Shown piece after piece: positions 39,174-50,494 of a stretch of 64,000 nucleotides of DNA (positions are counted from its first letter, which is position 1; the number at the start of each line of letters is the position of its first letter). Both the position numbers and the translations under genes were made by a program. Origin of the DNA: an uncultured Acidobacteriaceae bacterium. GTDB taxonomy: Bacteria > Acidobacteriota > Terriglobia > Terriglobales > Acidobacteriaceae. Under the pieces are notes generated by a model. That model had not been told where the DNA came from and ran no database searches. It saw only the letters and a program-made list of their open reading frames with translations. The stretch spans positions 61,564 through 125,563 of the forward strand of contig CAVWDK010000010.1 of the NCBI GenBank assembly GCA_963753715.1, in the 5' to 3' direction.

Positions 39174-39239
39174 ATATAAGGATGCGGCTCAAATCCGAGA
39201 GTTATTTCGTCGGTTAGTTGGTTGAGGGCTCCGCTTCGT

Positions 39240-41441
39240 ATGAGATCGAAGACTCGAAATATCTACGTCTGCTCTTTCATGTCGCTGTGCATCGTCGCCA
39301 TCTTTCAAGGGCAGACTGCGAAGGATCCTGCATATGTGAATTGGAGCGATTATGGCGGAGGCCTGGATTCGATGTCCTACTCTCCTCTGCAACAGATCAA
39401 CAAAAGCAACGTGGACCAACTGACCCAGGCCTGGTTTTTTCCTGTGCCGGGAACAAGCGCCAGATTCAGCTTTAGCCCGTTGATCGTGGACGGCAAGATG
39501 TACGTGCTCGGAAAAGGCGACGAGATTGTTTCGCTCGATGCGGTCACCGGTAAAGAGATTTGGTCTCACCCTACCCAAGGCACACCCACCGACCGAGGCA
39601 TCAACTACTGGGAAAGCAAAGATCGCTCGGATCGCCGCCTCATCTTCTCGGCCGACAGTTATCTGCAGGAAATCGACGCCCGGACTGGCGAGAGCATCAC
39701 TACTTTTGGCACGGACGGGCGGGTTAATTTGCGCGAGGGTCTGGGCCGGGATCCCAAAACCATTCCACAAATTCAAACCGGCACACCCGGGCATGTTTTC
39801 AAGAAGATGATCATCCTCGGCTCGGCGACCAGCGAGGCCTATGGTTCTCCTCCCGGCGACATTCGTGCTTTTGACGTGCTCACGGGCAAGTTGATTTGGA
39901 GCTTCCACACGATTCCGCATCCAGGCGAGTTCGGTTACGACACCTGGCCCAAGGACGCGTGGAAGTACGTGGGCGGAGTGAACACGTGGGGCGAATTCGC
40001 GATCGACGCAAAACGACGGATCGGATATTTTCCTCTGGGATCGCCTACCTATGACTACTGGGGCGGTGACCGCATCGGCAAGGGCTTGTTTGGAGATTGC
40101 CTCCTGGCGCTGGATTTGCGCACGGGCAAGCGGCTGTGGCATTTCCAGACCGTGCATCATGATTTGTGGGACTACGATCCGACGACCGCACCAAAGCTTT
40201 TGACCGTGCAGCACAATGGCAAGAAGGTCGATGTGGTTGCCCAGGCGACGAAATCAGGCTTTCTGTTTGTGTTTGACCGGGTGTCGGGAAAGCCTCTTTG
40301 GCCGATTGAAGAACGGCCTGTTCCCAAGAGCGATGCGCCGGGAGAAGAGTCGTGGCCGACGCAACCCGTTCCCACCAAGCCGCCGCCGTTCGCGCGCCAA
40401 AGCTTTTCCGCAGTGGACATCAATCCCTACGTCAGCGACGAAGATAAGGCACGCTTCCTGGAGATACTACGGAACACCAATAACCACGGCATCTTTACTC
40501 CCGGAAGCGCCAACAGCGATTCCATTCAGATCCCAGCCGACGACGGCGGCGCCAACTGGGGCAACAGCGCAGCGGATCCGAAGACGGGCGTGGTGTATTT
40601 GCGCACCGCGGATTCACCCGAGCGGAAATATAAACTGACGCAGAAACTTCCGCTGATGGTTCCCCCAGGGGCGACTCCCGAGACCCAAGGCCATGTGATC
40701 TTTTCTCAGCTATGCCAGGGATGTCATGGCCCAAACCGCTCTGGTGTGATGTCTCCCAAAGACATTGGGATCGACAAGTTCAAGAAGATTGTCACCGGCG
40801 GCGAAGGCGAGATGCCCGGCTTCTCCGACCTGCCCGCGCACTATCTGGATGCGCTGGCCGCATACATATCGAATCCATCTGCGGCTGCCCCGACGACGCC
40901 GCGAAGAGCCGGCGCCGGCGGCGGTATGGAACGGCTGCCACCGCCGCCAGGCATTACACGCTACTTTGGCAATTACGAAAACCGAATTCTCTCCAAGGAC
41001 GGTCTTCCCGCCATCAGCCCGCCATGGACCTCGCTGGTGGCCATCGATCTGAACGACGGAGAGATTCGATGGAGGGTTCCACTGGGTGTTGTGCCCGGAC
41101 TCGCAGCCAGAGGCATCAAAGACACTGGCTCGGCGAAGGTGACGCTGGCGTCAAACAGAACCGCGCCCCTGGTGACAGCCGGCGGCTTGGTTTTCGTGGC
41201 CAGCTGGGCCGACCGCACGATTCATGCCTTCGACAAAGACACTGGCAAACTGCTTTGGGAGAAGGAGCTTGCAGCAAATCCCGAAGGGCTGCCGTCAGTC
41301 TATGAAGTCGACGGCCGCCAATACATCGTCTTCTGTGCATCGGGGCATCCGCCGGAAACCGCGCTCGCCGAGGGATTCGCATGGAAAGCAGGCAAAGCCG
41401 AGGCGCAAGGCTACTACGTCTTTGCGTTACCTAAGCAGTAA
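39240..41441 (+). CDS. PQQ-dependent dehydrogenase (beta-propeller) with an embedded mono-haem cytochrome c module, exported
   Basis: After a signal peptide it has the quinoprotein motifs 'NWSDYGGGLDSMSYSPLQQIN', 'DAVTGKEIWS' and 'LLALDLRTGKRLWHFQTVHHDLWDYD'. CQGCH (40713-40727) with a downstream 'GEMPGF' lies before the last propeller blades ('AIDLNDGEIRWRVP...HAFDKDTGKLLWE'). Confidence 0.85.
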   Translation: MRSKTRNIYVCSFMSLCIVAIFQGQTAKDPAYVNWSDYGGGLDSMSYSPLQQINKSNVDQLTQAWFFPVPGTSARFSFSPLIVDGKMYVLGKGDEIVSLDAVTGKEIWSHPTQGTPTDRGINYWESKDRSDRRLIFSADSYLQEIDARTGESITTFGTDGRVNLREGLGRDPKTIPQIQTGTPGHVFKKMIILGSATSEAYGSPPGDIRAFDVLTGKLIWSFHTIPHPGEFGYDTWPKDAWKYVGGVNTWGEFAIDAKRRIGYFPLGSPTYDYWGGDRIGKGLFGDCLLALDLRTGKRLWHFQTVHHDLWDYDPTTAPKLLTVQHNGKKVDVVAQATKSGFLFVFDRVSGKPLWPIEERPVPKSDAPGEESWPTQPVPTKPPPFARQSFSAVDINPYVSDEDKARFLEILRNTNNHGIFTPGSANSDSIQIPADDGGANWGNSAADPKTGVVYLRTADSPERKYKLTQKLPLMVPPGATPETQGHVIFSQLCQGCHGPNRSGVMSPKDIGIDKFKKIVTGGEGEMPGFSDLPAHYLDALAAYISNPSAAAPTTPRRAGAGGGMERLPPPPGITRYFGNYENRILSKDGLPAISPPWTSLVAIDLNDGEIRWRVPLGVVPGLAARGIKDTGSAKVTLASNRTAPLVTAGGLVFVASWADRTIHAFDKDTGKLLWEKELAANPEGLPSVYEVDGRQYIVFCASGHPPETALAEGFAWKAGKAEAQGYYVFALPKQ

Positions 41442-41461
41442 GAAACATCGAGAGGATTGCA

Positions 41462-43261
41462 ATGCGCTGCAGAATGCAGGAATTGGCTCGTAGTCACCCA
41501 TCAACGGTGCGAGTGGGGACAAGCCTCCTCGTTCTGTTCGTCATTGTCCTCATTGGCCCCGGAATATTCGCGCAAACACAATCAAGCGATCCGAACAAGA
41601 ACCCCAGCGGAGGCGAGAAGGCAGGCCCTGGCAGCTTCACGCAGCCGTCTATGTCCGTGCGGCCCGCGGATCGAGGCAGGCTGCGCACCAGTGCGGCCAC
41701 GATATTAGGCTGGCGCCTCGGAGTACGAACGGATGCTTCCCTCACCTTCTGGGATGGCGTGCAGAAAGCCGACGCTGCCGGCCTTTCCGCAGTCGAAGGT
41801 GTGAACACGCAGAATGTCAGCGCGGACATTCCCAAACCCCTTGACTACCACCTGACTGACGACGAAGTCGCGAAGGTGAAAAACAGGCTCGATGAATTGC
41901 GCCTGCGCATGCCGGCGTACTTCCTCGCTGCGCTCCCGGGCGACGACAGCTCTCAACGCAAGGCATTCGAGTTTGCCAAGGAGCTCGGCGCGGACATGAT
42001 CATTGTTCCGGCCGATCCACCATCGTTCGCTGCACTCGACAAGCTGGCGAACGACACGGGCATGAACGTGGCCGTCGTTAGCCAAAACACAGCCGCCGCC
42101 ATGAACGCACTCGAACATCTCAGCAGCCACATTGGATTGCGTGTGCCTGTCGAGGAAGTACCGCAGGCAAAGGACCGGGTGCTTGCCGTTACCCTGCACA
42201 ACGTCGCGGATGCGTCACCCTTCCTTCTGCAATTGAGCCGTCTCCAACCGCCCGCCATTCAAGCGGATTGGCCGCCGGCACACGACGGCGGCGCCAAACG
42301 GTCGGAAGGCAAGCCTTTATTTTTCTCGCTTGATCGTAAGCAGCCCGGCCTTGCGCAAGCAGCAGCAGCTTATGATCAAGCCGTTCTTCCCGCAATTGCC
42401 TGGCGCATCGATACGCTCTCCCGCATGCAGACCATCTCCACGCCTGACAAGCTCCCTGCCGATGTCAGGAAGAAAATCGATGCGGCTATTCCCAGGGAAG
42501 CCCTGGTAAAGCCAGAGCGGCCACGCAAACTTCTGGTTCTGGATTTATGTGTCGATGGCGGTTACTATCACGCTTCCATTCCAGACGGAAACCTCGCTCT
42601 CGAACTCATCGGCAAGTACACCGGCGCCTATGTACCTACCTTCAGCAACGACCTCGACAATCTGAAATACCCGAAGATCAAAGAATACGATGCGGTCTTC
42701 CTGAACAGCGTGGAGGGCGAGCTGTTCATTGACCCGGAGGTGATCGGCGGCCTGACGCGATTCGTCTCGGAAGGAGGTGGCGTGGCCGCACTGCATGCCG
42801 CAACATTTGCCAGCGTCGATGTACCGGCATACGGAGAGCTCATCGGCGCGCAGACAGGGGCGCACAAATACAACGGAGAGATGGGCACACTGCGGATTGA
42901 CGATCCGGACAGCCCTCTCACCAAACAGTTTGAAGGCAAAGATTTCGACTACTTCGACGAGTTCTACCATTTTCTGCCCACCGGGCCATACTCGCGAGAA
43001 AAGCAACATATCCTGTTGAGCCTCGATCCGGCAAAAACTGAGCAGTCCGCCAACCGTTACACGACGCGGCCTGACAACGACTATGGGATGGTATGGATCA
43101 AAAGCTATGGCAAAGGGCGAGTCTTCACTTGCGCTTTAGGACACCGGCCGGAATTCTATGAGAATGCCAACATGATGCAGTTGCTTCTGGCGGCAACCCA
43201 GTTTGTCCTGGGCGACCTGAAAGCCGATACCACACCGAGCGCGCAGCTCACCAAGAAATGA
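41462..43261 (+). CDS. Exported fusion protein: xylose-isomerase-like TIM-barrel N-domain plus ThuA domain
   Basis: The C-terminal half has the ThuA pattern ('LLVLDLCVDGGYYHASI...YDAVFLNSVEGE...GGGVAALHAA...GKGRVFTCALGH'). The N-terminal half resembles sugar-phosphate isomerase/epimerase TIM barrels. It has a signal/anchor N-terminus and a 20-nt gap from the PQQ gene. Confidence 0.7.
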   Translation: MRCRMQELARSHPSTVRVGTSLLVLFVIVLIGPGIFAQTQSSDPNKNPSGGEKAGPGSFTQPSMSVRPADRGRLRTSAATILGWRLGVRTDASLTFWDGVQKADAAGLSAVEGVNTQNVSADIPKPLDYHLTDDEVAKVKNRLDELRLRMPAYFLAALPGDDSSQRKAFEFAKELGADMIIVPADPPSFAALDKLANDTGMNVAVVSQNTAAAMNALEHLSSHIGLRVPVEEVPQAKDRVLAVTLHNVADASPFLLQLSRLQPPAIQADWPPAHDGGAKRSEGKPLFFSLDRKQPGLAQAAAAYDQAVLPAIAWRIDTLSRMQTISTPDKLPADVRKKIDAAIPREALVKPERPRKLLVLDLCVDGGYYHASIPDGNLALELIGKYTGAYVPTFSNDLDNLKYPKIKEYDAVFLNSVEGELFIDPEVIGGLTRFVSEGGGVAALHAATFASVDVPAYGELIGAQTGAHKYNGEMGTLRIDDPDSPLTKQFEGKDFDYFDEFYHFLPTGPYSREKQHILLSLDPAKTEQSANRYTTRPDNDYGMVWIKSYGKGRVFTCALGHRPEFYENANMMQLLLAATQFVLGDLKADTTPSAQLTKK

Positions 43262-43270
43262 TGTTCAACC

Positions 43271-45469
43271 GTGATGCGTTTCCTGCTGCTACCTGCTTTT
43301 ACCGGGATGCTTCTCGCCGCTAACGTTCGGTTGGCAGCGCAGGATATCGACTCCATCGTCACCTCGGCAAGCCGCAGCTCCGCGACCATCGCCGACGGGA
43401 TCAAAGATCCTGCCGAGCGCGCCGCGTTTATCAACATCGCGAAGACCACTGACCCGCAAAAGCTGCTCGCCCTCACGCGGTCGTTTCTCGATAGCTATCC
43501 GCGGTCTGCATTCCTCGCGCCGGTGGCCGAGGGAGCAGCCCGTGCAAGCTTCGACCTTGGGCATTTGCAATCAGGCTTGGACTATGCCCGGTTCTCGCTC
43601 TCGTTGCTGCCTGAGAATCCACTGCTGTTGGTTGCGGTTGCCGATGTCCAGGCTGTTCTCCATGAGAACGAAGCAGCGATAGCCAGCGCTCGCGGTGCGC
43701 TCGATTACCTGGAACGCTTTGATCGCCCACTCAAGATTTCGGCGAAGGATTGGCCGGATACAAAGAAGCAGCAGCAGGCGACGGCGTGGTTCGTGATCGG
43801 GCGCGCACTGGTCAACGAAGCCCTTCAGGAAGCACCGAGTCTGAATCGAAAATCACTCCTGAACCAGGCAATCTCCGCGCTCAACCACGGCCGCGCTCTG
43901 GAGCCTGGCGATATGGAGATCGTCTACCTGCTCGGCGTCGCCCACGCATCAGCAAATGAATCTTCGCAGGCAGCGCTGGCGTTTGCTACGGTGTACCGGC
44001 AAAATACAGAACTCGCCGCGAAAGCGCGGGAACAATTGACGGCCATCTATCAGGCAGCCAAACCCGCAGGACAAAGCTTTGACGACTTTGCCGGCAACCT
44101 GGAGAAACAAGCAAGCCTTTCGCCGTCACCGCCAGCCGAGACTGAGGCCTCCACGACCAAACAACCCGGTTACGCGGGCTCTCAAGCTTGCAGCCGATGC
44201 CATGTCGATATTTACCGCCAATGGTCGCAGAGCGGCATGGCGAAGATGCTGCGGCCCTATTTGCCACAAAACGTGATCGGTGATTTCGAGAAGAAGAACG
44301 AGTTCTTCACCGGCGACGATATCCGCTACCGCGACGGCAAGCTGGAGATCACTCCCCATGACAATCGCGCTCTGTTTGCGCGCATGGTCATCCGCGGTGG
44401 CCGTCACTACTTCGACATCAAGGAATCAGACGGCCGGTGGCACTCCTATCCCGTCGACTACACCATCGGGTCCAAGTGGCAGCAGGCTTATGCCACCACA
44501 CTGCCCAATGGACAGATCCACGTCTTTCCCATCCAGTACAGTGCGGTGGCGAAGCAATGGCTCAACTACTGGAAGATTATCGACGCCCCAGGCAGTGAGC
44601 GTGCCAACCCGCTTAACTGGGAGAAGCTCGATGGCGCCACCAGCTACCAATTGAATTGTGCCGGGTGCCATACCAGCCAACTGCGTAATACATTGGGCGG
44701 CGGCATGGCTATGGACGATGTTGTCTTTCGCGAACCGGGAATCAACTGCGAGATGTGCCACGGGCCGGCCGGCGCCCACGTGGAGGCAATGACCACCGGC
44801 AAGTTCTATGCCAAACAGCCTTTCGATCCACCGGTCGATTTCCGCCGCCTCACCAATCGCCAATTTGTCGCCATCTGCGCGCAGTGCCACATGCAGTCCA
44901 ATGTGCACCTGGGCAACGCCCAGGGAGAGTTGAACTATTCCAGCAACGGCACGTTTTTTCTCAAGAATGCCGCGTTGCCGTTGGGCGAATTTACCCGCGG
45001 CGCCTTCTTCCGCGATGGCCGTTTTACGCAGGCTACGTTCATGGTCGAAGCACTGGAGCGTTCTCAATGCTTTCGCAAGGGCCAGGCCAGTTGCGGAACC
45101 TGCCACGATCCGCACGGACACGACGAGTCCTCCAACCTTACTTCGCTCAAATTCAAAGACCAACCCGACCGGATGTGTACCGGCTGCCACACTCAGTTTG
45201 AAGATAAAACGCAGGCTGCTGCACACTCCCATCATTTGATCGAGAGCGAGGCCAGCCGCTGTGTCTCCTGCCACATGCCCCGCATTGTGGATGGCATGCT
45301 GTTGCGCGTGCGTTCGCACCAGATCGACGATATCCCGAACGCAGAAATGACGATGCGCTTCGGCCAGCAAGACAGCCCGAACGCATGTTTGCTCTGCCAC
45401 TCGGAGAAGACTCCGGAGTGGGTTCAGGGCCAATTGCGGGCCTGGAAACACAACCCAGGGAAAGGATAG
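43271..45469 (+). CDS. Exported TPR-repeat protein fused to an octahaem c-type cytochrome domain
   Basis: It has a signal peptide, a TPR-like helical N-terminal region of about 270 aa and then eight CxxCH motifs (CSRCH, CAGCH, CEMCH, CAQCH, CGTCH, CTGCH, CVSCH, CLLCH). The gap from the ThuA gene is 9 nt. Confidence 0.8.
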   Translation: MMRFLLLPAFTGMLLAANVRLAAQDIDSIVTSASRSSATIADGIKDPAERAAFINIAKTTDPQKLLALTRSFLDSYPRSAFLAPVAEGAARASFDLGHLQSGLDYARFSLSLLPENPLLLVAVADVQAVLHENEAAIASARGALDYLERFDRPLKISAKDWPDTKKQQQATAWFVIGRALVNEALQEAPSLNRKSLLNQAISALNHGRALEPGDMEIVYLLGVAHASANESSQAALAFATVYRQNTELAAKAREQLTAIYQAAKPAGQSFDDFAGNLEKQASLSPSPPAETEASTTKQPGYAGSQACSRCHVDIYRQWSQSGMAKMLRPYLPQNVIGDFEKKNEFFTGDDIRYRDGKLEITPHDNRALFARMVIRGGRHYFDIKESDGRWHSYPVDYTIGSKWQQAYATTLPNGQIHVFPIQYSAVAKQWLNYWKIIDAPGSERANPLNWEKLDGATSYQLNCAGCHTSQLRNTLGGGMAMDDVVFREPGINCEMCHGPAGAHVEAMTTGKFYAKQPFDPPVDFRRLTNRQFVAICAQCHMQSNVHLGNAQGELNYSSNGTFFLKNAALPLGEFTRGAFFRDGRFTQATFMVEALERSQCFRKGQASCGTCHDPHGHDESSNLTSLKFKDQPDRMCTGCHTQFEDKTQAAAHSHHLIESEASRCVSCHMPRIVDGMLLRVRSHQIDDIPNAEMTMRFGQQDSPNACLLCHSEKTPEWVQGQLRAWKHNPGKG

Positions 45470-45521
45470 AAGGAGAGTCAAACGACCTGCTTCCTTGATC
45501 AGGCAACAATCGACCGGGTGC

Positions 45522-45554
45522 CCCACATCTCGCTCGTTTTTCGCGAGATGTGGG
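45522..45554 (+). terminator. Perfect 12-bp hairpin after the octahaem gene (REP-like, possible terminator)
   Basis: CCCACATCTCGC (45522-45533) and GCGAGATGTGGG (45543-45554) are exact reverse complements around the loop TCGTTTTTC. A related unit (...GAGGGGCACCC) occurs at about 7452-7500. Confidence 0.45.
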
Positions 45555-45739
45555 ATACCACAGCACTTCACGTGCAACTCTGTCGGTTGTCATTGGAAAG
45601 CGAGAGTGAGGCATCTGCTGTCCGCGCGGACTCCTGAGAGCCTGTCGAAGCGGCCACCCCAACCTGATCCACCCCGGACACCTCTCAATTGACATCACCA
45701 ATTTCGAACGCCGATAATCCATTGTTTATCAACTTAGAA

Positions 45740-47692
45740 ATGCAGGACCGGGGATTCATGTATCTACTTGCGCATGGCTCGCGAAGGAACTCGTTGCTGG
45801 TTGGTCTGCTGACCGTGTCTTCCCTCACCGCGAGCTCAGGCGCCCATGCGCAGCAGACACAGCCCACTCCTCCCATCTACGGCGGTAACCCACAGTCCCA
45901 GGAGTCGGGTTCGGCGACGGGCGGCGTGTTCGCGCCCGTACTCGACTCGGAGAAGAGGCCGATCACTGCGGGTGGCTTCGTCAAGACCGGGCCCATCGTC
46001 TTCCAGGATGTCTCAAAAAAAGGGGGCTTGACCGTCTGGCGCCACAGGATGGGAAACCCGGAGAAGAATTACATCCTGGAAACAACCGGTTCCGGCGTGG
46101 CCTTGCTGGACTACGACCACGATGGCTGGATCGATATCTACCTGGTGAACGGCTCGACCTACGAAGCAATGGATGGCAAGGCTGAGCCTCCACATGCTGC
46201 CCTCTTCCATAACAATCACGACGGCACTTTTACCAATGTTGCCGAGAAGGCTGGGGTAACCAACGGCCGCTGGGGCTACGGCGTGGCTGTGGGAGACTAT
46301 GACAACGACGGCTGGCCGGATCTGTATGTGAGCAATTTCGGCAAGAACCGTCTCTTTCACAATAACCATGATGGGACGTTCACCGACGTTGCGGAACAAG
46401 CCGGAGTGACCCTCGGCAACTGGTCGAATGGAGCCACCTTTGGTGACTATGACGGTGACGGTAAGCTGGACCTGTTTGTCCCCGGCTACGTCCATTACGA
46501 CTTGAAGAACCCTCCTCCTTCCGGAGCCGGCGACGCAGCCCATTCGTTCTGCCAATACCGCGGAGCCACCGTCATGTGCGGCCCTCGCGGCCTGCCCGGC
46601 GAGCCCGATCACCTGTTCCACAACAACGGCGATGGCACCTTCACCGACGTAAGCGAAAAAGCCGGCGTGAGTGACAAACGCCACTATTTCGGTTTCTCCT
46701 CGACTTTCGTCGACATCAATAACGACGGCAAACTTGACCTGATTGTGGCCAATGACTCGACGCCCAATTATCTCTACATCAACAAAGGCGATGGCACATT
46801 CCAGGATGCGAGCTTCTTCTCCGGCTTCGCTCTGAACCAGGAAGCTCGCGAGACTGCCTCGATGGGATTGGCCGTGGGGGATTACCTGAACAATGGCCTG
46901 GTCGATCTCTACACGACCACCTTTTCCGACGATTACAAAACCCTCTTCCGTAACGAAGGAGGAGGCAACTTCTCCGAGATCACCGAGCAGATGGGCATCG
47001 CCCAGGTGACCTATCCCTTCCTGAGCTGGGGCACCGAATTCATCGACTACGACAATGACGGATGGAAGGACATCATGTCGGTCAGCGGTCACGTCTACCC
47101 CCAGGTGGACAAGCATCACCTCGATTGGGGCATGACGTTTGCGGAGCGTCCTTTGCTGTTTCACAACCTCGACAAAGGCAAACGCTTCGAGCTGGTACCC
47201 GCGGTGGAAGGTACCGGGCTCGCCGATGTCATTCCGGGCCGTGGAGCAGCCTTCGGTGATCTGTTCAACGACGGAAAGGTCGACGTGGTCGTCAACTGCA
47301 TCGACCACACCCCGGTCCTGCTTCGTAACGTGAATGGGGATACCAACCACTGGGTAGGCCTTTCCCTGATTGGCGGACCCAAGGGACCTCGCGATGCCAT
47401 CGGAGCTGTCGTGTATCTCACTGCCGGCGGCATCCGTCAACGTGCGGATGTGATGAGCGGCGGCAGTTACGAATCCTCGAACGACCAGCGCCTTCACTTT
47501 GGGTTGGGGCAAGCGGCCAAGGTCGAGGCTGTCGAGATTCACTGGCCCAGCGGCTCCGTCGAAAAGGTTAGTTTGCCGGCGGTCGATCGATTCTTCATGA
47601 TTGAAGAAGGCAAAGGAGTTGTGCCCAGCGTCTACGATGCCATGGCGAAGAATTCGTCCCCGGCGCGGGGGGCCAGTACGAGCCCCAAATGA
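45740..47692 (+). CDS. CRTAC family protein (FG-GAP/VCBS repeats plus ASPIC/UnbV C-terminal domain), exported
   Basis: It has repeated 'D(Y/F)D(N/H)DGW.D(I/L)' calcium-binding FG-GAP motifs with 'LFHNNHDGTFT(D/N)VAE.AGV'. The C-terminal 'HWVGLSLIGGP...AIGAVVYLTAGG..Q...GGSYESSNDQRLHFGLG....VEIHWPSG' is the UnbV_ASPIC domain. The ORF is open from 45689. Confidence 0.85.
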   Translation: MQDRGFMYLLAHGSRRNSLLVGLLTVSSLTASSGAHAQQTQPTPPIYGGNPQSQESGSATGGVFAPVLDSEKRPITAGGFVKTGPIVFQDVSKKGGLTVWRHRMGNPEKNYILETTGSGVALLDYDHDGWIDIYLVNGSTYEAMDGKAEPPHAALFHNNHDGTFTNVAEKAGVTNGRWGYGVAVGDYDNDGWPDLYVSNFGKNRLFHNNHDGTFTDVAEQAGVTLGNWSNGATFGDYDGDGKLDLFVPGYVHYDLKNPPPSGAGDAAHSFCQYRGATVMCGPRGLPGEPDHLFHNNGDGTFTDVSEKAGVSDKRHYFGFSSTFVDINNDGKLDLIVANDSTPNYLYINKGDGTFQDASFFSGFALNQEARETASMGLAVGDYLNNGLVDLYTTTFSDDYKTLFRNEGGGNFSEITEQMGIAQVTYPFLSWGTEFIDYDNDGWKDIMSVSGHVYPQVDKHHLDWGMTFAERPLLFHNLDKGKRFELVPAVEGTGLADVIPGRGAAFGDLFNDGKVDVVVNCIDHTPVLLRNVNGDTNHWVGLSLIGGPKGPRDAIGAVVYLTAGGIRQRADVMSGGSYESSNDQRLHFGLGQAAKVEAVEIHWPSGSVEKVSLPAVDRFFMIEEGKGVVPSVYDAMAKNSSPARGASTSPK

Positions 47693-47777
47693 CCGCTTTG
47701 CATTCACAAACGGGCTGGATGGGTGTATACCAGTTCCCAGGCCTCCCCGCGCCTGTCATCCTCTGGAGGAATAGAGA

Positions 47778-49982
47778 GTGAAGACCTTATTCCTGCGCGG
47801 GCTTCTGATGGTATCCGTCGTCGCCGCGGCCCTTTGTTTTGCAAAGGCCACCATCAAGGCCGCCTCCAACGAGGACCCTGCCCGCAAGGAATACGCCGAT
47901 AAGATTCGTGCTACCTACAATTACCGGTTTGGCAAAGACCACCCTTCCACGCCTGGCAATGCGACGATGGAAGACGACGACTTTGTTCAACCGGGCGCCT
48001 TCCCGGACGCAAAGTACTGCGGGCATTGTCATCAGGAAGCGCTCCACCAATGGCGGCAGGCCCTGCATTCGAATTCCTTCCGCACGCCGTTTTACCGCAC
48101 CAGTGTAAATATCCTGATTCGAACGAAAGGCATTGAGTTCTCCCGCCACTGCGATAGCTGCCACAACCCGATTGCCGTATTGTCCGGCGCCCTGACCCAG
48201 GACTCGCAAGTGGACCGCAGCTTCGATAAAGACGGTCTCACCTGCACCACGTGTCACTCCATTGAGAGCTTGAAGTCGACCAATGGTAATGGCGGCTTTG
48301 TCATGGCGATTCCCGCAGTGATGGTGGACGAAAACGGCCATCGCATTCCGGGCGAAGTTCCGTATGACGAGATCATGAAGTACCCCAAGCGCCACGATAT
48401 GGCCATCATGAAGCCCTTCTACCGGACACCCGAATTCTGCGCCGCTTGCCACAAGGCCAATTTGCCCGACACGCTGAACGACTACAAATTTATCCGCGCC
48501 TTTACCACCTACGACGAATGGCAGCAATCCAAGTTCTCGCAGCAAAATCCGCTGACCTTTTACACCGCCGACTTCACTACCTGCCAGGGCTGCCACATGA
48601 AACGAGCGGCCAATACCCTTCCTGAGCCGGGTGCAAAAAACGGCACCTTTGCTTCGCATAGCTGGCCGGCGGGAAACACGGCTGTTCCCTTCTATTACGG
48701 GTTTGATGAACAACTAAAAAAGACAACCGATTTCCTGAAAGCTGGAAACTATCTGAACGTGGACATTTTTGCGCTCCAGAAGGCCAACGATGACAAGATC
48801 ATTGGACCGCTCGGTTCCGTCCCTTTTAACCTCGACCCGAATGAAGTGGTGCAAGCCCTGGTGGTGATCCAGAACAAAAACATCGGCCACTCACTGATTC
48901 CGGAAGTGCGCGATCTCTACGAGGCCTGGGTCGAGTTCACCGCCAGGGACGCTACAGGTAAGGAGATCTATCACAGTGGCTTTATCAAGCCCGATGGCGC
49001 GCTGGACGAACGGGCACACAGTTTCACCAACCGGCCTGTCAACGTCGACGGCGGATTCGTCGATAATCACAAAGTCTGGACTATCCACTCGGTAGCCTAC
49101 GACAACTCTGTCCAGGCAGGCAGATCGGTGTTAGTGCGCTACCAGTTCCGGCTGCCGTCTGACTTGAAGGGCCCCATCACCATTACCGCGAAAGTGAACT
49201 ACCGGCATCTTCGCCAGAGCTATCTGAACAACATTTTTGGCCCCGATCATCCGGCCTATCCAATCGTGGAGATTGCATCGCGGAGCCGTGTTTTGCATTC
49301 CGGCGAGAATCGTCCTTGCCCGCCTGAAGCCGGCGACAACCCCGACTGGATGCGCTGGAACAATCTGGGCATTGCGTATCTCGACCAGGCGCAATACTAC
49401 GACGCGGTGCGCGCGTTTACTGAAGTAGCCAAACTAAGACCGGACTACGCCGATGCCTATACCAACGTCGCTTTGGCAGAAATTCAGTGGGAGAAATACG
49501 ATTCTGCCCGCGCCAGCATTACACGCGCCCTGGCTGTGAGCCCGGATAACCCGCGCGCCCTCTACTACCTTGCCCAGTTACAAAGACGGGCCGGTGAGTA
49601 CGACGCCGAGATCGCCAACTTGAAAAAAGTGGCCGAGCAATTCCCTGCTTCGCGCGATGCCCGGCGCGATCTTGGCCTCGCCTATTACCGGCGGCGCGAC
49701 TATCCGGCGGCCAGAATACAGTTTGAAGCGGTGCAGCAGATCGACCCGGACGATCTGAGTGCCCACTACAACCTGTCGATCATCTACCGGCGTATGGACA
49801 TGGAACAGAAGGCCGCGGAGCAACAAGCCGAGTTCATTACCAAGAAGTTCGACCCTGGAGCCCCCACGTACTCCTTCGACTTCCTGCGCCAGCACCCGGA
49901 GATATCGATCGAGAGTATTCCCCAGCATGTGCATACCGATCTTCCTTACGAAGCTAAGCCATCCCACGCGGGAGCTCAGTAG
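47778..49982 (+). CDS. Exported pentahaem c-type cytochrome fused to a C-terminal TPR domain
   Basis: GTG start with GGAGG upstream, a signal peptide and five CxxCH motifs (CGHCH, CDSCH, CTTCH, CAACH, CQGCH). A middle domain of about 200 aa is followed by C-terminal TPRs ('YYDAVRAFTEVAKLRPDYADAYTNVALAE...'). Confidence 0.8.
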   Translation: MKTLFLRGLLMVSVVAAALCFAKATIKAASNEDPARKEYADKIRATYNYRFGKDHPSTPGNATMEDDDFVQPGAFPDAKYCGHCHQEALHQWRQALHSNSFRTPFYRTSVNILIRTKGIEFSRHCDSCHNPIAVLSGALTQDSQVDRSFDKDGLTCTTCHSIESLKSTNGNGGFVMAIPAVMVDENGHRIPGEVPYDEIMKYPKRHDMAIMKPFYRTPEFCAACHKANLPDTLNDYKFIRAFTTYDEWQQSKFSQQNPLTFYTADFTTCQGCHMKRAANTLPEPGAKNGTFASHSWPAGNTAVPFYYGFDEQLKKTTDFLKAGNYLNVDIFALQKANDDKIIGPLGSVPFNLDPNEVVQALVVIQNKNIGHSLIPEVRDLYEAWVEFTARDATGKEIYHSGFIKPDGALDERAHSFTNRPVNVDGGFVDNHKVWTIHSVAYDNSVQAGRSVLVRYQFRLPSDLKGPITITAKVNYRHLRQSYLNNIFGPDHPAYPIVEIASRSRVLHSGENRPCPPEAGDNPDWMRWNNLGIAYLDQAQYYDAVRAFTEVAKLRPDYADAYTNVALAEIQWEKYDSARASITRALAVSPDNPRALYYLAQLQRRAGEYDAEIANLKKVAEQFPASRDARRDLGLAYYRRRDYPAARIQFEAVQQIDPDDLSAHYNLSIIYRRMDMEQKAAEQQAEFITKKFDPGAPTYSFDFLRQHPEISIESIPQHVHTDLPYEAKPSHAGAQ

Positions 49983-49999
49983 CGCGATTCACTGCCCGA

Positions 50000-50494
50000 A
50001 TGAGATATCTCACGCTAGCTCTCTTTGCGCTTCTGGCTCCAAGGCCCGCACTCTGCCAGGCGAGCCCTGGCTGTCCCTGGCTCAACCTCGCCACCGCCTC
50101 CGGAGTTCTCAGGAGCAGCGAGAACGGAAGTATGGCGACCTTGTCCCAGGGCAGCAAGGAGGTCTGCACGTTCCTCTACCACGACGCAACCACATCGCGT
50201 GAGCTGCGCATCACCACGGAAGAGGTGCAGGACCCAAAGCAGGCCATGACGCGCTACAAGGCCCGTTGCAGCGGCAAAGTGTTGCCTTTAAGGGCGATTG
50301 GCAATGAGGCGGTGATGTGTGCAGCGGCCATCCAAGGCCAAGCCGAGACAGAGCAAGTGATTGGCCGCGTGCGCGACCAGATCTTTACCGTCGCCATCAC
50401 CACCAGCGTTCGGAACGATCCCTCCATGTCTGGTGACGCGCTCAAGGAGAAAACCAGAAACGTAGCGGAGCAAGTAGCTGGCGCGCTCTTCTGA
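50000..50494 (+). CDS. Small exported hypothetical protein (Cys-containing)
   Basis: 164-aa ORF 17 nt after the pentahaem gene with a signal peptide (MRYLTLALFALLAPRPALCQA). I recognised no family. Confidence 0.55.
   Translation: MRYLTLALFALLAPRPALCQASPGCPWLNLATASGVLRSSENGSMATLSQGSKEVCTFLYHDATTSRELRITTEEVQDPKQAMTRYKARCSGKVLPLRAIGNEAVMCAAAIQGQAETEQVIGRVRDQIFTVAITTSVRNDPSMSGDALKEKTRNVAEQVAGALF

Follow-up and report, generated by a model that had tools for sequence, protein, structure and literature searches.

Why should a gene for a CRTAC1-type beta-propeller stand between two genes for multihaem cytochromes that carry tetratricopeptide repeats (TPRs) at opposite ends, and do the three products form one assembly? 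The question is raised by a locus of an uncultured Acidobacteriaceae bacterium, within a stretch of 64,000 nucleotides (nt) of contig CAVWDK010000010.1 (assembly GCA_963753715.1; hereafter the window), in which the open reading frames (ORFs) of cytochrome A (43271-45469), propeller protein B (45689-47692) and cytochrome C (47778-49982) all lie intact on the plus strand. They belong to one run of six plus-strand genes, coding for a pyrroloquinoline quinone (PQQ) dehydrogenase, a ThuA-domain protein, A, B, C and a protein of 164 amino acids (aa), D164, all of them exported proteins whose export signals were read directly from the sequences. A sequence-only reading of the window had proposed that A, B and C are a designed tripartite assembly, with mirror-image cytochromes bracketing the propeller. 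Our analysis shows that this apparent trio is two adjoining modules and not a designed three-part assembly, and the explanation that we consider probable is a head-to-tail arrangement of two periplasmic redox modules that are independent of each other, one at 39222-45469 and the other, an old, widespread cassette with a calcium beta-propeller, at about 45740-50494.

The evidence begins with a neighbourhood survey of C homologues in three bands of identity to C, comprising 80 species-representative loci at 64-90%, 20 at about 29-76% and 20 at 26-33%, with a single counting script run over 79 close, 19 intermediate and 20 distant loci. Genes in the fetched loci are longest-ORF calls labelled by BLASTP from the window proteins, a procedure that can miss distant domains and leaves start positions approximate; moreover, the surveyed genomes are related to one another, so locus counts are not independent. 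The records of close relatives bear labels such as Tunturiibacter, Granulicella, Edaphobacter, Acidicapsa and Terracidiphilus, and cultured strains with the cassette include Tunturiibacter lichenicola MP8S11, T. gelidiferens X5P2, Granulicella sp. S190 and Acidicapsa dinghuensis 4GSKX (loci L066, L067, L069 and L096). A CRTAC1 gene lies on the same strand within 500 nt of C at 76 of 79 close, 7 of 19 intermediate and 18 of 20 distant Acidobacteriota loci, and 10 of the 19 intermediate loci have one within 5 kilobases (kb); as background, 3.1% of ORFs of at least 300 aa in the source genome fall within 5 kb of a CRTAC1 ORF. Even a record labelled Dokdonella sp. has C and CRTAC1 adjacent, with a 14-nt gap. 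Two fixed gene orders occur among close relatives, at 38 loci each, namely CRTAC1-C-D164, as in the window, and TPR protein-C-CRTAC1-D164, while in distant relatives CRTAC1 always follows C. D164 is found within 3 kb of C at 61 of the 79 close loci. C, a CRTAC1 gene and the small secreted protein are a gene cassette conserved across Acidobacteriota. The proposed association of a TPR-bearing multihaem cytochrome with CRTAC1 therefore stands for C (about 100 of 118 loci), with fusions of TPR and CRTAC1 and the enrichment of A-type cytochromes beside CRTAC1 paralogs also in its favor, and falls for the trio of A, B and C.

An A-type cytochrome occurs within 5 kb of C at only 6 of 79 close loci and at none of the 19 intermediate or 20 distant ones, and A and the B-C-D164 block prove separable, contrary to the co-occurrence that a designed assembly implied. 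The shared syntenic frame reads RraA-PQQ-[ThuA]-[A]-[B-C-D]-glyoxalase-MR/MLE-TPR, where D is D164. Within it, locus L053 holds the PQQ dehydrogenase, A and glyoxalase genes with no B-C-D, and the closest relative, L055 (C 90% identical), holds PQQ, B, C and D with no A; in L051 and L063, B-C-D as a whole runs in the opposite orientation to A. The steadier companion of A is the PQQ dehydrogenase gene, which lies on the same strand just upstream at 8 of 9 A-bearing loci (6 among the 80 species loci plus 3 contig look-ups, 2 of which have it), with ThuA and/or one further gene between them in some. Furthermore, clear A orthologues were found in only two of 300 sampled genomes of the phylum, G299 (69%) and G279 (47%), neither of them near a C homologue. 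A is thus a separable neighbour of B-C-D, tied to the PQQ dehydrogenase.

Gene spacing tells a similar story. Intergenic gaps are 20 nt (PQQ-ThuA) and 9 nt (ThuA-A) in the first module and 85 nt (B-C) and 17 nt (C-D164) in the second, and the spacer between A and B is 270-290 nt, counted to the probable ATG starts of B. The listed TTG start of B (45689) coincides with a promoter-like site, and the true start is more likely, from the sequence, the ATG at 45740 or 45758. This site, a sigma-70-like match TTGACA-18-GATAAT (11 of 12) ahead of B at 45689-45718 on the plus strand, is a consensus match only and the top-scoring plus-strand site of the region. The spacer also holds a perfect 12-bp hairpin (45522-45554, plus strand; arms CCCACATCTCGC-9 nt-GCGAGATGTGGG) that is a copy of a dispersed intergenic palindromic repeat, and RNA folding of 45470-45600 gives -51 kcal/mol (z -4.25). 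Tight spacing inside the modules, together with a long spacer that contains a repeat and a promoter match, agrees with two units. The hairpin has at least 53 intact copies genome-wide, and its arm sequence recurs at about 100 sites, such as C1:94046, C8:402444 and C10:38307, with 150 matches to one arm or the other. Several copies form inverted pairs about 100 bp apart, with a common consensus that reaches about 75 nt past the hairpin, and the repeat looks like an element of the repetitive extragenic palindromic (REP) or miniature inverted-repeat transposable element (MITE) type.

The two cytochromes also differ as haem proteins. A has exactly eight CxxCH motifs (residues 307, 463, 493, 536, 608, 636, 664 and 706) and C exactly five (residues 81, 125, 156, 221 and 269). 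The contexts of their first haems, CSRCHVDIYRQWSQS and CGHCHQEALHQWRQA, are present as the sequence-only reading quoted them, and had been taken as a sign of kinship; the C..CH......W motif that they share, in its longer form CxxCH......W..S/Q, is found in c552, OcwA and cytochrome c554 as well, and is therefore a superfamily signature and not a mark of special A-C kinship. A specific relation between the haem modules did not survive alignment either. BLASTP of A against C returns one 47-residue match around haem 1 (E 0.007), and full-length hhalign aligns the TPR parts alone (A 90-238 with C 565-683, probability 53%). A permissive haem-only alignment (probability 81%) pairs A haems 1, 2, 3, 4 and 7 with C haems 1-5, and its score of 46.3 lies less than one standard deviation from the mean of 40 shuffles in which the CxxCH columns were fixed and all other columns shuffled (39.0 +/- 7.7, maximum 56.9), whereby specific A-C haem homology was rejected. 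Both proteins pass the Pfam model Cytochrome_C554 (PF13435; A 27.9 bits, C 32.4 bits, cut-off 20.8). On these sequence comparisons, the A and C haem domains are different families, kin at the superfamily level only.

Protein A (732 aa) consists of a signal peptide, a TPR-like repeat (about residues 40-283), haem 1, a beta insert (about 327-431) and haems 2-8. The order of signal, TPR and eight CxxCH motifs that had been read from the sequence is thus confirmed, the TPR part by fold and without a Pfam TPR match (none at E <= 0.01). In the AlphaFold model, 12 helices lie within residues 47-283 at a predicted local distance difference test (pLDDT) of 85-97, and the top Foldseek matches of this helical repeat are all TPR proteins (E down to 3e-5; template modelling (TM) score to MamA 0.75); a MamA profile matches weakly, at 19.6 bits against a cut-off of 200. 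Judged by the model, the N-terminal domain is a TPR-like solenoid, though Pfam TPR profiles miss it. The haem region matches Pfam Paired_CXXCH_1, Cytochrome_C554 and Cytochrome_C7, and its closest solved relative is OcwA (6i5b; phmmer E 7e-8), through short, motif-centred stretches at A haems 1, 2-3 and 7-8. Modelled mostly at pLDDT below 55, it yielded no fold match, as Foldseek of A returned only TPR proteins.

Among relatives of the A haem domain (25-30% identity), the haem part is mostly N-terminal and the C-terminal extension is a TPR in several; a paralog in the source genome, C3:466189-468126, likewise has an N-terminal haem domain and a C-terminal extension. The N-terminal TPR of A is, on this comparison, an unusual order within its own family, and since its relatives mostly carry the TPR C-terminally, the mirror reflects domain shuffling in the lineage of A. 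Every C homologue examined, on the other hand, has the order haem, beta-sandwich, TPR, so that fixed domain polarity holds for C and not for A.

How much, then, remains of a single assembly in which the TPRs of A and C, at opposite ends, clamp the same propeller and electrons run from A through B to C or in reverse? We regard it as decidedly improbable. A-B-C is contiguous on one strand in the window and in L056, L057, L060 and L062, TPR-type repeats are present in both cytochromes, and a split version exists at C1:706966-711270, where a TPR gene, a seven-haem gene and a CRTAC1 gene follow one another as separate genes. Yet the trio is limited to a single narrow clade, in which C is at least 75% identical, and there too A or B-C-D may be missing, inverted or separated; additionally, the distant A orthologues in G299 and G279 lie apart from C homologues, and a repeat element and a promoter-like site sit inside the A-B spacer. 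The arrangement as two modules nevertheless has its own difficulties, and several observations weigh against it or against a tight pairing of C with CRTAC1. Of the eight A-type cytochrome ORFs in the source genome, four have a CRTAC1 ORF no more than 1 kb away, an enrichment over the background of 3% that also speaks for the tripartite assembly, and elsewhere a CRTAC1 gene stands no more than about 10 kb away at 5 of 20 A-type loci; given this enrichment, the place of A beside B may not be functionally neutral. CRTAC1 does not adjoin C at 12 of the 19 intermediate loci, from which it is evident that C can function with no partner gene beside it. The promoter match is not in statistical excess (5 sites in the region against 4.5 expected), and the haem regions of both AlphaFold models, of A and of C, are of low confidence, such that haem ligation and any open catalytic site are unreadable from them. 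Finally, the CRTAC1 genes adjacent to C make up three separate clades, with paralogs that do not adjoin C interspersed among them, which implies that partners were exchanged or arrays rearranged and weakens a strict one-to-one complex. A single dedicated, co-inherited CRTAC1 partner lineage was rejected on account of the three clades; as the gene phylogeny has it, the partnership of C with CRTAC1 exists at the level of the family and not as one co-inherited pair.

Protein C (734 aa) is the constant element of the second module. It comprises a signal peptide, a pentahaem cap (about residues 60-300), an immunoglobulin (Ig)-like beta-sandwich (about 320-515), five TPRs (about 520-700) matched by many Pfam TPR models, and a conserved tail; the predicted order of signal, five CxxCH motifs, a middle domain of about 200 aa and TPR was correct, the middle domain being the beta-sandwich. 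C is single-copy in the source genome, and its core is very strongly conserved, the top 120 database matches being 75-97% identical. The five CxxCH motifs are invariant across 54 homologues, down to 28% identity. An AlphaFold model built with these homologues reaches pLDDT 73.6 and a predicted TM score (pTM) of 0.69, with the beta-sandwich (residues 320-515) at about 85-93. Foldseek ranks first the pentahaem cytochrome c552 of Thermochromatium tepidum (5ze8; E 2.9e-9; TM score, over the target's whole c552 chain, 0.58), and sequence searches with the core give weak matches to 5ze8 and MccSep. By its model, the core of C is a member of the fold family with a pentahaem cap and an Ig-like stem, which includes c552 and MccSep/ExtKL. 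Membership of the MccSep/ExtKL selenoprotein subfamily itself is ruled out: C scores 15.6 bits against the ExtKL NCBIfam model NF040886 (cut-off 250), and across the 54 homologues it has no conserved Cys outside CxxCH, leaving the Cys haem ligand and the catalytic selenocysteine (Sec)/Cys of MccSep without counterpart.

This fold also invites the reading that the enzyme is C, a reductase or oxidase that works at one of its own haems, as in MccSep or NrfA, and to which CRTAC1 and D164 would be accessories for substrate capture, for anchoring to a polymer or mineral, or for maturation. That C shares a fold class with the polysulfide reductase MccSep and has so strongly conserved a core favors this idea, as does the presence in the core of just four invariant non-motif His for five haems, whereby one haem could be open or unusually ligated. 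We nonetheless think it unlikely, as the Cys ligand and Sec/Cys pair of MccSep have no counterpart, the low-confidence haem model cannot show ligation, and the consistent retention of a TPR tail and a CRTAC1 gene is left unexplained. Two further invariant His, His717 and His719, lie in the tail after the TPR (residues 712-719, window 49911-49934), where E712, S713, H717 and H719 are all invariant down to 28% identity; judging from this conservation, the His pair, which stands apart from the cytochrome core, could ligate a haem, bind a metal or make contact with a partner.

Beyond the close relatives, C homologues acquire other attachments. The distant ones, of 900-1200 aa, come from Thermoanaerobaculia, other Acidobacteriota and one Dokdonella-labelled record (for example L049:8477-11395 and L155-L174), and have at the N-terminus a module of about 200 aa whose four transmembrane helices contain four invariant His, in pairs on helices 2 and 4. 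A Pfam search of this membrane extension returned no family; possibly it is a membrane anchor of a dihaem cytochrome b type that has yet to be described, an assignment read only from the pattern of four helices and four His. In the intermediate loci L035, L036, L039 and L041-L044, a small class-I monohaem cytochrome c (CxxCH ... MPAFG) follows C in place of D164. C homologues 67-71% identical are also found in bins named Verrucomicrobiia (L077, L117), Betaproteobacteria (L093), Nevskia soli (L109) and Candidatus Aquilonibacter (L094), which, given this level of identity, are probably mis-binned acidobacterial contigs and not cases of transfer.

Protein B, the first gene product of the second module, has the FG-GAP beta-propeller of the CRTAC1 family and a C-terminal UnbV_ASPIC domain. 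Its Pfam matches, FG-GAP_3 (E 1e-51, 173.6 bits, cut-off 26.9, in 5 stretches) and UnbV_ASPIC (E 3e-20, 72.3 bits, cut-off 23.4), identify it as of CRTAC1 architecture, as the sequence-only reading had supposed of the middle gene, and it contains no CxxCH motif. B is one of about 17 full-length paralogs among 22 CRTAC1-like ORFs of the genome, and belongs to the clade of CRTAC1 genes that lie upstream of C. Some paralogs are interrupted by stop codons or split (C1:709660-711270, C3:412034-413635, C4:425434-427026 and C4:985014-986528), indicating that the family is turning over. The partners of C are exported in different ways, with twin-arginine (Tat) signals (RRKFLRSLSRTALVLPF) in the downstream type, Sec-like signals in the upstream type including B, and an N-terminal membrane anchor in distant relatives. 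The downstream-type genes with Tat signals are those of L071-L134, for example L105:12168-14048. A Tat signal on B had been considered as a hint of a cofactor and was set aside, as 'SRRNSLL' is not conserved among orthologues and there is no uniform export route, and no inference was drawn from it. In the source genome, 9 of 22 TPR ORFs lie within 5 kb of a CRTAC1 ORF, and fused TPR-CRTAC1 ORFs of 1160-1224 aa exist. The module closes with D164 (50000-50494, plus strand), a small secreted protein with four conserved Cys and the conserved motifs CPW.N.ATA.G.L, IGNEA..C, GRVR..F and AEQVAG.LF, for which neither Pfam nor NCBIfam gave a match.

Our best guess is that B and C work as a redox pair in the periplasm, with the propeller docked by the TPR. 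The existence of TPR-CRTAC1 fusions suggests the TPR tail of C as the docking part, and the five haems of C would carry electrons between whatever the propeller binds or converts and a partner that donates or accepts them. The path might run from the quinone pool or a soluble cytochrome, through the pentahaem cap, to a target that sits at the propeller or is held by it, and the TPR would be the docking element. This donor or acceptor would, in distant relatives, be the fused module of four helices and four His, dihaem-cytochrome-b-like and linked to the quinone pool, and in intermediate relatives it would be the small monohaem cytochrome c. A system for extracellular electron transfer or a cytochrome filament, in which A and C deliver electrons to minerals or humics and CRTAC1 acts as an integrin-like adhesin, could draw on the cell-surface terminal reductase OcwA being the closest solved match of A, on the c552 family having been proposed as kin of an archaeal cytochrome nanowire (PMC11976967), and on the many homologue-bearing genomes that come, by their record titles, from peat or bog metagenomes. 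It is very improbable, for the cassette has no outer-membrane porin-cytochrome or filament-assembly genes, A is only weakly similar to OcwA, in stretches centred on the motifs, and the distant C and CRTAC1 homologues are inner-membrane-anchored, which indicates a periplasmic site.

The first module starts with the PQQ-dependent dehydrogenase (39222-41441, plus strand; Pfam PQQ E 1.5e-170), a quinohaemoprotein with an internal monohaem cytochrome c domain. This domain (Cytochrome_CBB3, residues 488-549) lies between the propeller segments PQQ (41-467) and PQQ_2 (605-693), not at the C-terminus. It is followed by the ThuA-domain protein (41462-43261, plus strand; 599 aa; Pfam ThuA E 2e-30, residues 366-581) and ends with A. 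The module would be a periplasmic system for oxidising sugars or alcohols, with A most likely as the electron carrier of the PQQ dehydrogenase. In L057, L059 and L052 (9041-9970), it gains a xylose-isomerase-like TIM-barrel gene (AP_endonuc_2) ahead of A, and in L052 (12228-13811) and L059 a gene of 524-527 aa lies between A and B, with a faint CE2_N match in L052; the extra genes hint, by their sequence, at a carbohydrate-oxidation context for A. A bolder view would have bacterial CRTAC1 propellers bind or convert the substrate, as subunits of periplasmic redox systems of a widespread kind not yet described, in which TPR-tethered cytochromes of at least two families, pentahaem (PHC) and OcwA-like, wire them to the respiratory chain; here the PQQ dehydrogenase, A, B and C would then make up a single path for electrons, leading from the oxidation of a sugar or alcohol to the reaction at the propeller. 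We rate this as quite unlikely.

The useful outcome of this work is negative, in that the mirror symmetry is a by-product of adjoining modules and TPR shuffling, and B-C-D is the meaningful unit. What is new here is a trio tested and rejected, the link of A to the PQQ dehydrogenase, the shuffle control on haem domains, the polarity survey and the three clades of CRTAC1 partners. Few secreted families have expanded as much in soil Acidobacteriota and Planctomycetota as the CRTAC1/ASPIC-UnbV proteins, of which a human homologue exists; animal CRTAC1 is a component of the extracellular matrix. To our knowledge, bacterial CRTAC1/ASPIC proteins have no established biochemical function, and we know of no cofactor site in CRTAC1. 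The gene partnership with a five-haem cytochrome, which persists from Acidobacteriaceae out to distant forms anchored in the membrane, places this family in a redox setting that is open to test; our literature search found no published redox context for animal or bacterial CRTAC1, and no paper on the pairing of a pentahaem-TPR protein with CRTAC1.

Among known systems, C is most like c552 (5ZE8) and the Geobacter proteins MccSep and ExtKL, which belong to one fold family (PMC11976967; bioRxiv 10.1101/2025.11.18.688581). The published architecture of MccSep is a five-haem cap with an Ig-like stem (bioRxiv 10.1101/2025.11.18.688581), and C also has a helical five-haem cap at its N-terminal end and then an Ig-like beta-sandwich, to which it adds a C-terminal TPR array of about 200 aa, a His-bearing tail and the genomic link to CRTAC1. 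The structure 6I5B is that of OcwA, a nonahaem surface reductase of Thermincola potens (PMC6703420), from which A differs in having eight haems and not nine, in the beta insert of about 105 aa that separates haem 1 from haem 2, and in the TPR-like domain at its N-terminus. As for B, it shares FG-GAP repeats and UnbV_ASPIC with animal CRTAC1/ASPIC proteins, and its family is heavily expanded in the source genome, as was reported of the ASPIC/UnbV family in Solibacter (PMC3174227).

The nearest parallel in gene order comes from Planctomycetota, Syntrophobacter and Paludibaculum, where a CRTAC1-family gene lies between two hydrazine-synthase-like haem-protein genes (PMC12758564, the only paper that our search found to name a bacterial 'CRTAC1 family protein'). 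There too, an FG-GAP gene of the CRTAC1 family is flanked by two genes for c-type haem proteins; the flanking genes, however, are like hydrazine synthase's alpha and beta-gamma subunits (HZS-alpha-like and HZS-beta-gamma-like, propeller plus mono- or dihaem) and not PHC-TPR and octahaem-TPR genes, and no HZS Pfam domains were found in A or C. More broadly, quinohaemoprotein alcohol dehydrogenases, cytochrome cd1 and hydrazine synthase all have a substrate propeller wired to c-type haems. The resemblance is one of analogy, not homology, and here propeller and cytochrome are separate proteins, joined at most by a TPR.

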